Assembly: GCF_002105155.1 (NCBI RefSeq)
Contig: NW_019028989.1
Coordinates: forward strand, 434,001 to 498,000
Length of the DNA: 64,000 nt
Direction: 5' to 3'
Origin: Lobosporangium transversale
Taxonomy: Eukaryota
The translations under genes were made by a program, and so were the position numbers. This document shows positions 1,718-8,514 of this stretch, one piece after another (position 1 is the first letter of the stretch; each line of letters begins with the position of its first letter). The notes below the pieces were generated by a model that saw only the letters and a program-made list of their open reading frames with translations, did no database searches and was not told the DNA's origin.

Positions 1718-2882
1718 TATAGCCCGTTTCATTTGGTCACGATACCTTATATTTTTTAAATTGATTGAATAGACTCAAGCGAAAATTGAATTGTATTGAA
1801 TAGCAACTCTAAATCCGATGTCGTTCGCTACTTGCAAGCTTGGCTCGCTGTCCTCTATTTGCACGCCGAGCGACGGAAGAGGTCAGTGGCTTTGACGTTG
1901 AATAACTGTTATGCGTCACTATGTTTTGCTTCCTTACCTTCACTCTAGCTCTCACGCAACACAATCAAACATGATGATCGTCAAATTCACAGAGTTCCAT
2001 CAAGTAAGTAATAGACTATCTTTTTTTTATCATTTACCTGCGCTTCCTAATTATTTGTGAGTAATCTCTGGTTTCTTACGATGAATAGACGCGGAATCTT
2101 TCGATCCAATGAGAACATCGCAGCTTCCTTCTCCCTTTTCTTTTTTTTGACCTTGGAGGTCGTTACAAGGAGACGCCAGATGTTCTGCTGATTCGAACTG
2201 GCCACTACCCATAGTGGGGAAACTTTTTGAGCAGGTCTTTGACCTTGTGCAAAAGTTTCAGCCCTCCGGTTTTAAAAAGATTCTGTCAAGCATCTGAGTC
2301 TTTTCTTTTTTTTATATTTTCTTTTTCTTTTTCTATGGCTGCTGAGGGATATACGAAGAGACGCCAGACATCTCACTGATTCGTTAACTGCCCACTATTT
2401 ATAGTGATGGAAACTCTTGGTCTTTGACCCTGGTTTCAGCAACCCAGTCGTATCGAATCACAAGGGTTCTGGCTCTATTTCTTTTTTTTTTCTATTTTTT
2501 TTTTCCCCCTCCAAGACATGGTTCCGCCTTGGTTCTTGCTATCTCCTGCCAGCTCGCCAGGTCTGACCACAAGTTGCCGTCTGTTCTCCGTCGCGGAAAA
2601 TGGATAATATGATTATTTTTTTGCATGGTATTACAAACGCAAGGCCTTTATTCAAACCTACAACATGCAACTCGACATCGAGACCAATTTTAACCATCAT
2701 ATATACTCTGAAGTAATATTAGGCCAACCAAGATTTTACCCATTCGCACACTCGGATTCTTAGCAGCTGTCGGGCCGCGGTTTTTGTCGAGGCGTGGATG
2801 AGGATATCGTGGGCAAGACTCTCAACAATGTTTATATTTCGTTGGAATAACAAAAAGCATCAAGCATTAAAGTCGAATAACA
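1718..2882 (+). repeat. Left terminal inverted repeat (1165 bp)
   Basis: Reverse complement of 7162-8514 apart from one 188-bp unit. The same 62-aa ORF appears at 2424..2612(+) and 7432..7620(-). Confidence 0.95.
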
Positions 2883-2908
2883 CAATAAACAATCCTAAAT
2901 GAAGCAAT

Positions 2909-4623
2909 TTATTCTGATCTCTTGCGCTTTCTATTGATCTGGAGGTAAAAAGATGGCCTCACCCATGTATGTTTCACCTCGTCTGTAACCCTCACGCGCT
3001 CCCCGACAGCTTCCTTGGCTTTCAAGTAAGCTGTCTTTGTAGTCTCCAGAATTGGCACTGCTTCCGCAACCACGCTAAGGCTCTTCCTGCCCTTGGGCAC
3101 TTTGACCTTGCCCAATAATCTGGGGATATAAACGGCTTCGTAATCTAGGGTCATCACGAAGATTTCCATTTGACCATCTAAAGCGTGAATTAGCACCACT
3201 GTCTCCGTTTAGGTTTCATGGATCGTAAAAATATACAAGAGTGTAACATACCTTGGACAAGCAGACCCAGGACCGTTGGGTCTTTTACACCCTTGGCGAA
3301 CAAGAGATCTAGTGCCAGCTTCATTTCAGAAAGTAACTTCCTGAAATCTCTATCAAGGAGCTTTTTAGAGGTTCCTGGGGGCTTCACCTCCACTACGAGT
3401 AGAGGCAGGCCGTCGACCATAACCAGGTTATCTGGTCTAAAGCGCTCCGTATAGTATTTCTCCGTTGGGATTCTGCTATCGCTGAAAGCGGAGACGTGTT
3501 ATACCAAGAGTGAAGAAATAACATGTGAATATCCTGCAGAAATGAATGAAGAACAAAGAACTGACAGATCTACTACTCACCAGTATCCCAAAGTCGATGC
3601 GATGGCGCAGATGTAGGGCCTGACGTAGAGCGCGCTGTACGTCGCCTCGTTTTTTTTTATTTTGCCAGGCGACTCCCAAACATCTCGTCCTCGCCAAGTT
3701 TGGTGAAAATGCTCTTGAGCATTTCACTTGCTCCTTCCTGACCCTTTTCAAGAAAGGCGCGATACTCGGAAGCAGAGTTCGACGCCTTTGCTTTCTCCAC
3801 GCAGAATTTGGAAAAATCCAAATCCTGCTCACTCAAGGCTACACTGGTCTCTGTAACCTTGAAAAAGCGCTTGAGTTTACGACGCCCCGCCTTTGAAAAA
3901 TATTTTTCCATAAACTCTTTTGTGAAAATGAAGTTTATGGAGCTAGAAAACACAGTAAGAACTGTATCAGCGTCACGGCCTTCGGTGTGTTCTCAAGCAA
4001 TGAAATAAATGGTAGTAAAAAGCACTCACAGAATATCATGTGGAGAGAGGAGCGTTCCCTGGCGCTCTTCCTCAAGTTTAATGAGTTCTTCTCGTACCTC
4101 CATGAGGGGAGAAGATACATCGAAACCTCCGTTTAAGACCAACCTATCGGTGACCTGACTACTCCTCTCGCCTTCCCCAGTGAGGTGGTTGATAGGCTCA
4201 TCCGCGTCAGACTTGTTAGTCTTGTCAGACTCGTCGGGCTAGTTGTTATTATTTTTATTAATATTGGATCATAATGGAAGTAAACATTGGTTCAACGTTA
4301 AATTATTCGACACATACTTTCAGGTAATTGTTGATGTTTGTTTTTTTTATGCCTTTTAGTAAGGCACGTAAGTTCTCCTTGTAAATGATGATCAGGACTG
4401 AGTCATCTCTTCTTGGTCGCGCCGCCCTCCTGATCTCACTGATAATTTTGCTGAAACTGCTAGCTTCACGATCCACGCCGTATTCCTTGACGGCCCATTC
4501 GACGAAATGGAAAAGGGTAAGATCTTTTGGGCTTGGCCATTTGCCAATTGGAAGTTGAGATATCATAGTATCCAAGTCAACCTTGACCTTTTGAGGCTTC
4601 TGAAAAATTGTGCTGGTGGCCAT
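2909..4623 (-). CDS. Five-exon PD-(D/E)XK restriction-endonuclease-fold protein (transposon cargo, ~460 aa), with one stop/frameshift in an A-run
   Basis: Manually spliced GT-AG exons 4623-4318, 4238-4030, 3942-3581, 3481-3252 and 3177-2909 keep phase at every junction. They yield NEATYSALYVRPYI and RFRPDNLVMVDGLPLLVVEVKPP..DFRKLLSEMK. TAA at 3659-3657 followed by A9 breaks exon 3. Confidence 0.75.
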
Positions 4624-6775: not shown

Positions 6776-7161
6776 TGTAAAAATTTTGCTGGAATGTGAA
6801 GGAAGATAAAAAGTTGTTTATTATTTGTTGTCAAGAGGGAGCCCTTTATTGAACCCCGCCATAGCCGTCACTAATGTTAGGCCTTCAGTGTATGACCTAG
6901 TCTAATGATCGAGATCTACAACAGCAAGAAATTGAATACTTCAGCAGCTTTGTGAAGAAAACGCTATCGATGGCATACAGAAGATATAGCCTTTCTTACC
7001 ATGATCACGCAGACATGTGTGCCATTAGCTGGCATAATTGCAGTCAAGTTTTGCATAATACATGATATATATAAATAAATATTAAGGGTTTATCGAAAAT
7101 ATGCAGCTTTATTGCCTGATAATTCTTGTTGCGCAATTCGAGTATAATGATTGGTGCTTTT

Positions 7162-8514
7162 TGTTATTCGACTTTAATGCTTGATGCTTTTTGTTATTCC
7201 AACGAAATATAAACATTGTTGAGAGTCTTGCCCACGATATCCTCATCCACGCCTCGACAAAAACCGCGGCCCGACAGCTGCTAAGAATCCGAGTGTGCGA
7301 ATGGGTAAAATCTTGGTTGGCCTAATATTACTTCAGAGTATATATGATGGTTAAAATTGGTCTCGATGTCGAGTTGCATGTTGTAGGTTTGAATAAAGGC
7401 CTTGCGTTTGTAATACCATGCAAAAAAATAATCATATTATCCATTTTCCGCGACGGAGAACAGACGGCAACTTGTGGTCAGACCTGGCGAGCTGGCAGGA
7501 GATAGCAAGAACCAAGGCGGAACCATGTCTTGGAGGGGGAAAAAAAAAATAGAAAAAAAAAAGAAATAGAGCCAGAACCCTTGTGATTCGATACGACTGG
7601 GTTGCTGAAACCAGGGTCAAAGACCAAGAGTTTCCATCACTATAAATAGTGGGCAGTTAACGAATCAGTGAGATGTCTGGCGTCTCTTCGTATATCCCTC
7701 AGCAGCCATAGAAAAAGAAAAAGAAAATATAAAAAAAAGAAAAGACTCAGATGCTTGACAGAATCTTTTTAAAACCGGAGGGCTGAAACTTTTGCACAAG
7801 GTCAAAGACCTGCTCAAAAAGTTTCCCCACTATGGGTAGTGGCCAGTTCGAATCAGCAGAGCATCCGGCGTCCCTTCGTATATCCCTCAGCAGCCATAGA
7901 AAAAGAAAAAGAAAATATAAAAAAAAGAAAAGACTCAGATGCTTGACAGAATCTTTTTAAAACCGGAGGGCTGAAACTTTTGCACAAGGTCAAAGACCTG
8001 CTCAAAAAGTTTCCCCACTATGGGTAGTGGCCAGTTCGAATCAGCAGAACATCTGGCGTCTCCTTGTAACGACCTCCAAGGTCAAAAAAAAGAAAAGGGA
8101 GAAGGAAGCTGCGATGTTCTCATTGGATCGAAAGATTCCGCGTCTATTCATCGTAAGAAACCAGAGATTACTCACAAATAATTAGGAAGCGCAGGTAAAT
8201 GATAAAAAAAAGATAGTCTATTACTTACTTGATGGAACTCTGTGAATTTGACGATCATCATGTTTGATTGTGTTGCGTGAGAGCTAGAGTGAAGGTAAGG
8301 AAGCAAAACATAGTGACGCATAACAGTTATTCAACGTCAAAGCCACTGACCTCTTCCGTCGCTCGGCGTGCAAATAGAGGACAGCGAGCCAAGCTTGCAA
8401 GTAGCGAACGACATCGGATTTAGAGTTGCTATTCAATACAATTCAATTTTCGCTTGAGTCTATTCAATCAATTTAAAAAATATAAGGTATCGTGACCAAA
8501 TGAAACGGGCTATA
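7162..8514 (-). repeat. Right terminal inverted repeat (1353 bp), with one extra 188-bp tandem unit
   Basis: TATATCCCTCAGCAGCC recurs at 7691 and 7879 (period 188), and 1353-1165=188. Confidence 0.95.

Follow-up and report, generated by a model that had tools for sequence, protein, structure and literature searches.

A predicted nuclease gene and a spliced terminal-repeat RNA in the Sailor transposon of Lobosporangium transversale

Results

The window, a 64,000-nucleotide stretch of Lobosporangium transversale DNA, contains a transposable element at positions 1718–8514 (6,797 bp, counting the TATA at either end). The two TATA copies, at 1718–1721 and 8511–8514, were read from the sequence as the target-site duplication, and TATA is the usual duplication of Sailor elements (PMC8533490). 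The element is bounded by terminal inverted repeats (TIRs): the left TIR (1722–2885, plus strand) contains two structured units, and the right TIR (7159–8510, minus strand) contains three, the additional 188-bp unit lying at 7676–7863. With the TATA included, the left arm spans 1,168 bp (1718–2885) and the right arm 1,356 bp (7159–8514). Beyond the extra unit in the right arm, the two differ by three mismatches, two of them at the unit boundary, which upholds the preliminary description of a 6.8-kb element with near-identical TIRs of 1.17 and 1.35 kb.

Judged by its sequence, the element is a copy of Sailor-Lobtra, a founding Sailor member, which has been published as a 6,979-bp element whose TIRs measure 1,362 bp, whose transposase has 607 aa and whose target duplication is TATA (Shi et al. 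2021, PMC8533490). The terminal sequence, the catalytic-domain protein, the 607-aa transposase, the TATA duplication and the kilobase TIRs all match, whereas the window copy differs in having one 188-bp unit less in its left arm and a frameshifted nuclease. The element had been put forward as a candidate new, Sailor-like system; by these features it is instead Sailor-Lobtra itself, and its kilobase TIRs were in print before. The main text of PMC8533490 mentions no nuclease, second gene or TIR transcript, and what is new relative to the published description is the spliced nuclease gene and the spliced TIR RNA. The family has been recently active, as previously proposed, with about six near-identical copies, a number estimated solely from contig depth.

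The Sailor transposase is encoded on the minus strand at 4952–6775, in an open 607-aa frame that confirms the intact DD88E transposase noted earlier. Its catalytic triad is D244/D365/E454 (258/379/468 when counted from the upstream stop), with the second D separated from the E by 88 residues. This spacing falls inside the DD82E/Sailor range of 78–111 aa (PMC8533490), and the TATA duplication and TIRs, which are traits of the same group, are both present. Placement in the Sailor clade is based on the catalytic region, which matches the Fu-Lobtra row of that paper when compared by eye. A 190-bp MITE (8533–8722) adjoins the element and has the same terminal motif. Its summed DNA depth in run X1 is 26,029, compared with about 120 for single-copy flank, and it is likely mobilised by the Sailor transposase of the element.

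The second gene lies at 2909–4623 on the minus strand and encodes a predicted PD-(D/E)XK-type nuclease of about 456 aa. It comprises five exons (4623–4318, 4238–4030, 3942–3581, 3481–3252 and 3177–2909) separated by four GT..AG introns, with a PD..EVK motif encoded in exon 4 and a basic C-terminal end. The RNA run X5 shows introns 1 and 4 removed, and both are retained in the DNA runs X1 and X2. Two database proteins show full identity to the window nuclease, P0104 to its N-terminal part and P0045 to its C-terminal part. The preliminary description of a co-oriented, spliced nuclease-fold gene was therefore borne out in its exons and introns, but it had overlooked a one-base frameshift near 3677, which leads to a first stop at codon 267 of the window copy. 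The frame is open in the published Sailor-Lobtra copy and in about five of the roughly six genomic copies.

The PD..ExK core is conserved across the nuclease family (P in 46 of 49, D in 45 of 49, E in 49 of 51 and K in 46 of 51), and each of the four types of nuclease linked to Sailor (window, P0044, P0046/P0110 and P0095/P0117) has the D, E and K. The model of the homologue P0044 (pLDDT 85) includes H85–101, E125–129, E132–139, H146–169 and E176–183. A conserved PD..(D/E)xK motif on a helix–three-strand–helix–strand core points to a PD-(D/E)XK-type protein and a predicted nuclease. Matches of the fold to solved structures in the PDB were all below significance (HsdR 3h1t, E 0.047, probability 0.80; DrdV, probability 0.72), as was the BFVD match to HsdR-N (probability 0.72). 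Pfam HSDR_N matched two of 52 family members with an E of 0.0011, under the cut-off. HsdR-N is the best, albeit weak, fold match. A PDB sequence search with the nuclease returned no nuclease, and a model of its N-terminal part had no PDB match; a signal peptide and a CRN header motif were looked for in the protein and neither was found. Matches in the ESM Atlas came from Mucoromycota clusters only. In Mortierellaceae the family has 66 representatives, named from at least seven genera, and its architecture is mixed, including kinase/Sel1 and F-box fusions.

In four further L. transversale gene models a Sailor transposase is fused to a nuclease, both of them diverged. A search for long fused forms of 1,170–3,340 aa, a length range poorly suited to them, gave none. 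In a transposase tree of 23 of 24 rows (the L005 transposase was left out), the nuclease-linked transposases, all from the single species L. transversale and including that of the window, form one clade (support 100/99), which argues that the pairing is old. A single origin of the Sailor-linked nucleases is not rejected (p-AU 0.55), and in quick nuclease trees they fall into two groups. Between P0110 and the window, the nucleases are 29% identical and the transposases 54%. The nuclease thus diverges faster than the transposase, as conflict genes may tend to do. Because D, E and K are kept in all four types despite this divergence, the nuclease appears to be retained, non-decaying cargo. The earlier proposal that transposase plus nuclease is the normal layout is supported by a multi-copy contig that bridges both genes, and by the published copy and three deep lineages, which carry both. 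Among 30 metagenome loci, of which only L001, L024 and L027 have enough DNA to count, there were zero nuclease matches, and these three informative outside relatives lack the gene. Since the Sailors L024, L027 and Sailor-Morsp move without such a gene, the nuclease is not core machinery.

The left arm contains a spliced RNA on the plus strand (1960–2856), with exons at about 1960–2003, 2089–2627 and from 2714 or 2723 to about 2856, the ends being approximate. Its GT..AG joints (2003–2089, 2626–2713 and 2626–2722) occur in X5 and are missing from the DNA runs, in keeping with the TIR-encoded RNA postulated beforehand; the strand was deduced from the orientation of the introns. The right-arm copy (7188–8272, minus strand; joints 8143–8229 and 7320–7416) mirrors the left one and reads toward the transposase gene, stopping about 400 bp short of its start codon. 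The RNA contigs do not distinguish which arm or arms are transcribed. The longest ORF is 45 aa, and the RNA is likely non-coding. In X5, contig depth was 5,051–25,000 for the spliced RNA, 10–20 for the nuclease junctions and 653 for a neighbouring host gene, which is a hint only, as contigs cannot measure level. These RNA data come from one run of one study and cover only this family and a relative at about 90% identity.

Structured unit 1 (2168–2300, plus strand) consists of nested hairpins followed by a U-tract at 2299–2333, and unit 2 (2356–2480, plus strand), diverged from unit 1, is followed by a U-tract at 2477–2505. The repeats fold better than shuffled sequences (z −3.2 and −4.8, the two best of 27 windows), so that the structured repeats described inside the TIRs are supported by folding but not by two-sided covariation, which was absent. 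Rfam gave no match to the units, and its three weak miRNA-like matches all lay on the TIR–MITE hairpin. The unit core motif had zero matches in viral contigs and zero in prokaryotic contigs. Compared by eye with the known motifs, the units were unsupported as a hammerhead, twister, snoRNA, telomerase RNA or ENE triple helix; in the predicted fold, the U-tracts do not face one another. Targeting or homing, suggested previously as roles of the nuclease, would fit poorly if a guide RNA were used, as the RNA begins about 240 bp in from the element end and runs inward, and the element interior contains no complement to it of at least 12 bases.

Discussion

In standard teaching, ITm transposons are one-gene elements. 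The usual layout of a single transposase ORF is broken here by an additional gene with introns and by a transcript of the TIRs, and a clade that keeps a second nuclease through deep divergence departs from the one-gene picture. The element also places an unannotated nuclease family of Mortierellaceae, with more than 60 representatives, in a first genomic setting. A spliced RNA gene in TIRs of record length would, in addition, explain an oddity that had been printed without a cause.

We propose, with a probability of roughly 0.35, that the nuclease is a selfish DNA-damaging toxin that retains the element, the TIR RNA perhaps being its antidote; about half of this figure falls on the RNA acting as antidote. 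Following known ITm biology, the DD88E transposase would bind the outer TIR motif, excise the element and insert it at TATA, and would also move the MITE. The nuclease would enter nuclei and cut DNA, and nuclei or spores without the element would suffer damage. Carriers could be shielded by the TIR RNA, which would either bind the nuclease protein or damp the nuclease mRNA through convergent 3′ ends; alternatively, the helical N-terminal part of the nuclease itself may provide the shield. Broken nucleases, which occur in several deleted derivatives besides the window copy, speak against a toxin, as do the fold matches below significance and the single species behind the nuclease-linked rows; RNA data from one run and a structure lacking two-sided covariation count against it as well, and we know of no link between the Mortierellaceae family and an RNA or Sailor. 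In favour of a toxin, a precedent is offered by the SPOK fungal spore killers, described as killing via a nuclease domain that resembles those of type I restriction enzymes (PMC9972908), and HsdR-N is also the best, albeit weak, match of the element's nuclease. The retained catalytic residues, the single clade of nuclease-linked transposases, the rapid divergence of the nuclease, its absence from other mobile Sailors, its basic C-terminal end without a signal peptide and, as a hint only, the depth of the TIR RNA point the same way. We regard as improbable the further version in which a eukaryotic toxin–antitoxin with an RNA antitoxin resides inside a cut-and-paste transposon and suits a multinucleate fungus: a cytoplasmic nuclease would reach every nucleus, abundant TIR RNA would protect only the nucleus transcribing it, and element-free nuclei would be removed. 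If the RNA were indeed the antitoxin, this removal would explain why both kilobase TIRs hold the RNA gene. A true nuclease–RNA link would mean that a eukaryote harbours an addiction module with an RNA antidote, and would supply a mechanism by which nuclei of coenocytic fungi compete.

The nuclease could instead be ordinary cargo, host-useful or hitch-hiking, drawn from a large fungal family, with the TIR RNA a separate captured or new non-coding gene that was duplicated by end copying and perhaps damps right-arm transposase transcription. We consider this somewhat doubtful. It is favoured by the wide distribution and mixed architectures of the family, by the two groups of Sailor-linked nucleases, by a right-arm RNA that aims at the transposase and ends ahead of its start codon, and by a transposase-region depth in X5 of just about 15, perhaps partly from DNA; REase domains are also described as common in eukaryotic conflict proteins (PMC5289972). 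Neutral hitch-hiking is nevertheless difficult to reconcile with catalytic residues kept in three deep lineages within a single transposase clade, and a benefit acting outside the host with a nuclease lacking a secretion signal. That the nuclease helps movement or copying, by partnering the transposase in cutting the ends or by cutting sites that lack the element or have lost it through excision, whose repair would then restore a copy, seems unlikely to us. The nuclease always lies behind the transposase in the same orientation, the two are co-inherited throughout the clade, and there is precedent for a DDE transposase working with a PD-(D/E)XK nuclease, yet sister Sailors and outside ones are complete in the absence of the nuclease, and its divergence is much faster than that of the transposase. 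Insertions at varied TATA sites would, moreover, be unrecognisable to a homing enzyme of fixed specificity, and an RNA that starts internally and runs inward cannot hold flank sequence as a guide; Fanzor-like guiding is therefore unlikely.

Very improbable, in our judgement, is that an assembly artefact or one recent capture accounts for the length of the arms or for the pairing of the genes. No long reads span the element, the near-identical copies stem from a single burst, and the deep-lineage links are known from fused gene models alone rather than locus DNA. Against this, DNA contigs from two studies connect the TIR both with the flank and with the interior, the DNA depth of the TIRs is about twice that of the interior, the published copy is independent and has the same layout, and the four fused models are diverged; the inverted arms, questioned in the preliminary description, are thus not an artefact of assembly. 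Run X8 was excluded as an empty-site control, since C>T (43) and G>A (20) changes made up almost all of its differences, the pattern expected of bisulfite-converted DNA.

Several known systems resemble parts of this arrangement. The long TIRs of MuDR contain promoters and are likewise transcribed inward, but the transcripts of the present element stay within the TIR and have no long ORF. In Tn7, the TnsA nuclease partners TnsB in cutting the ends, which similarly joins a PD-(D/E)XK nuclease to a DDE transposase, although Sailor moves partnerless. Transposons bearing Fanzor or TnpB combine a transposase with an accessory nuclease and with an RNA located at the end of the element; here the nuclease is predicted to be of the PD-(D/E)XK type, not RuvC, and the inward RNA takes no guide from the flank. 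Type III toxin–antitoxin systems such as ToxIN are bacterial, with short RNA units and an RNase toxin. In them a nuclease gene adjoins an RNA built from structured units in tandem, variable in number, to which the predicted nuclease and folded units of this element may correspond, whereas the RNA of this element is a spliced eukaryotic transcript with no Rfam match and no two-sided covariation. The CR/Crinkler REase proteins (Zhang et al. 2016, as presented in PMC5289972) are described as having an REase fold behind a helical N-terminal part and a tie to mobile DNA and conflict; the element's nuclease differs in having no Crinkler Pfam match, LxLFLAK/HVLV motif, Ubl header, NTPase/kinase domain or signal peptide. 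In SPOK, by the description in PMC9972908, the same protein also has a kinase domain, in which resistance resides; such a domain is absent here, and the carrier here is an ITm element. Likened by description only, and with the link to Enterprise taken from a reference title, SPOK on Enterprise shares with this element a fungal, selfish, transposon-carried character and would share a DNA-damaging nuclease domain like that of type I restriction enzymes.

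Identity and layout of the element

The element lies at 1718–8514, with TATA at each boundary, and is enclosed by inverted arms, the left TIR at 1718–2885 and the right TIR at 7159–8514. The right arm contains one 188-bp unit more than the left; once this unit is set aside, the two differ at 3 of 1,168 positions. The transposase gene, on the minus strand (6775–4952), is an open frame of 607 aa with 88 residues from the second D to the E, and it matches DDE_3 and HTH weakly in a Pfam-type domain search. The 6.8-kb-class element with near-identical long TIRs and the intact DD88E transposase put forward in a preliminary description are thus borne out.

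Its standing as a candidate new element did not hold. The nearest named proteins in a protein database search are from Lobosporangium transversale, and Shi et al. 2021 (PMC8533490), in the parts available, give Sailor-Lobtra, one of four RepBase-derived founding sequences, a length of 6,979 bp, TIRs of 1,362 bp and a transposase of 607 aa. The copy in the available part of their supplement has the same starting bases as the window element, differs at a few positions by eye, and includes the nuclease gene with its frame open. This copy and the matching listing establish that the transposon, kilobase TIRs included, was already known. The other full-length fungal Sailor in the available parts of that paper measures 2.4 kb, with 53-bp TIRs. 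The word "nuclease" occurs nowhere in the accessible main text, which mentions neither a second gene nor a TIR RNA; our literature search returned one paper pairing Sailor with Lobosporangium and none describing such cargo, and RepBase may annotate the second ORF. Neither the conserved nuclease cargo nor the spliced TIR RNA appears to have been described before, and both are open to direct test.

A 190-bp MITE (8533–8722) with the same ends as the element, including the Sailor terminal motif, sits 18 bp past the right end; summed DNA depth suggests roughly a hundred related copies, or more. An 88-bp stretch at 58757–58841 is 76% identical to 6788–6875, upstream of the transposase, and adjoins a minus-strand host gene that is Vps16-like by eye. 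The long host ORF at 45524–50497 resembles, by eye, the catalytic subunit of DNA polymerase epsilon and represents ordinary host context.

Copies and integrity of the arms

The window stretch is present in 7 of 8 listed sequencing runs, from four studies; four of the eight were examined. In the DNA run X1, contig depth is 117–125 in the single-copy flank and 683–784 in the element interior, giving ~6 copies, while a second DNA run, X2, gives 5–8. TIR contigs reach about twice the interior depth, and the flank–TIR and interior–TIR junctions are each bridged. The inverted arms are therefore real and no assembly artefact, although no single record spans the whole element. Joints at 3982–5546, 4626–4773 and 4802–5565, at single-copy depth in both DNA runs, suggest that related two-gene elements have left deleted derivatives. 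X8, a run with the pattern expected of bisulfite-converted DNA, was dropped as an empty-site control; its differences are nearly all C>T and G>A.

The nuclease gene and its family

Downstream of the transposase and on the same strand lies a gene of five exons and four GT..AG introns with a PD..EVK motif (4623–2909, minus). The database proteins P0104 and P0045 are identical to its two ends, and three exon junctions are confirmed. The spliced, co-oriented gene was described correctly, save for an overlooked frameshift near 3677 that places the first stop at codon 267. At this site the contig of ~5-copy depth in each DNA run departs from the window sequence, and so does the published copy; since a contig of the RNA run X5 carries the window's form, the frameshift is probably a genuine mutation of the window copy. 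X5 shows introns 1 and 4 removed, at depths of 9.7 and 19.5, and the DNA runs retain both; the gene is therefore transcribed.

The nuclease activity of its product is predicted. No Pfam family covers the domain, and neither a signal peptide nor a CRN header motif was found in the protein. A homologue, P0044 (58% identity), retrieves 66 representatives; of the 30 checked, 28 are named as Mortierellaceae and two are unnamed. The motif residues are conserved in 46/49 (P), 45/49 (D), 49/51 (E) and 46/51 (K) rows, with NE upstream. The predicted model of P0044 (pLDDT 85) has the restriction-fold topology, its best structural matches being HsdR-N and DrdV, every one below significance. The N-terminal part is helical and gave no match in a structure search. 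Two Actinomortierella members of the family, P0066 and P0074, carry fusions, one with a kinase and Sel1 repeats, the other with an F-box.

Age of the transposase–nuclease pairing

Four further L. transversale gene models (P0002, P0110, P0095 and P0117) fuse a Sailor transposase to a nuclease. Their transposase parts are 54–84% identical to the window transposase, and their nuclease parts range from 29% (P0110) to 50% (P0002), with P0095/P0117 at 44% over a short stretch only. A 23-row tree unites the five nuclease-linked transposases in a single clade (support 100/99), sister to P0001/P0017. Quick trees separate the linked nucleases into two groups, and one common origin is not rejected for them (p-AU 0.55; 28 rows selected). 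The pairing is thus old within the L. transversale Sailor lineage, as judged from fused models that are predictions on partly deleted copies, every one of them from this single species; P0044 is taken to be linked to a Sailor on account of its closeness.

Among 30 metagenome loci outside the lineage, none has a nuclease match, just three of these loci being informative. The P0001 locus, L001, has no nuclease in the 5 kb downstream of its transposase, and two other loci (L024 and L027) are short elements bounded by TIRs. Downstream of the L001 transposase, the closest outside Sailor, tandem repeats of ~250–290 nt (11874–12660) could encode an analogous RNA; in sequence they do not match the TIR units, and the right end of that element was not found. 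At L005 (1–609 and 2096), a Sailor left end shares its first 12 bases with the window element, and a 92-nt tandem array lies 1.5 kb upstream of that end.

A spliced RNA from the TIRs

In X5, GT..AG joints at 2003–2089, 2626–2713 and 2626–2722, with mirror joints at 8143–8229 and 7320–7416, are absent from both DNA runs, and their orientation means that the RNA reads inward. It extends from ~1960 to ~2856, with a length of ~720 nt, or ~910 nt when three units are present. The longest ORF in it has 45 aa and the first 18 aa, so it is likely non-coding, with a micropeptide as a possibility. Contig depth in X5, a poor measure of level from one run of one study with ~12 arms summed, is 5,051–25,000 at TIR junctions, 10–20 at nuclease junctions and ~15 over the transposase; the neighbouring host gene reaches 653. 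A contig from a ~90%-identical relative has 93 bases less than the window over the second intron and continues into spliced nuclease exons, which suggests that this RNA, with convergent 3' ends, is present in the relative too.

The structured repeats noted earlier within the TIRs are predicted to fold into nested hairpins (best windows z −3.2 and −4.8; whole exon 2 z −2.25); no two-sided covariation was seen in what is essentially a comparison of two variants. Searches of Rfam, and for the unit core motif in viral and prokaryotic contigs, gave no match to the units, and no complement of at least 12 bases links the RNA to the element interior. A U run at 2616–2633, immediately before the second 5' splice site, is Sm-site-like; normal splicing is more likely here than end formation, because exon 3 is well covered.

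Possible roles of the nuclease and the RNA

Cut-and-paste insertion at TATA is expected from ITm biology, and the transposase would excise the element and insert it in this manner. Sailors in general can do without the nuclease; even so, its catalytic residues are kept through deep divergence, and its sequence changes faster than that of the transposase; together, these features best fit a gene serving the element's persistence. We therefore hypothesize that the nuclease would act as a selfish toxin, to which we assign a probability of roughly 0.35, and that the TIR RNA would act as its antidote, a role carrying about half of that weight.

There are two close rivals. The nuclease may tentatively be regarded as unrelated cargo accompanied by an independent RNA, or, somewhat more doubtfully, as a helper in transposition or homing. 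An artefact or one-off capture is unlikely: the open nuclease frame of the published copy, and an X2 contig at multi-copy depth (3920–5293) that spans the nuclease–transposase junction with no differences, run counter to the idea that full-length copies lack the gene. The architecture originally proposed, a transposase, a nuclease and a TIR-encoded RNA, stands in that the two genes co-occur in copies and in diverged models and the RNA is spliced; the proposed novelty of the element is not supported.

TnsA, ToxIN, Fanzor and MuDR are systems with which such an element can be compared. Guiding of the Fanzor kind is disfavoured, as the nuclease fold and the direction of the RNA argue against it. 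CR-REases, Crinkler-type REase proteins, are covered in a review (PMC5289972). The fit to a persistence role, combined with the fungal precedent of the SPOK spore killers, which in the available part of PMC9972908 have a type I restriction-like nuclease domain, favours the selfish toxin.
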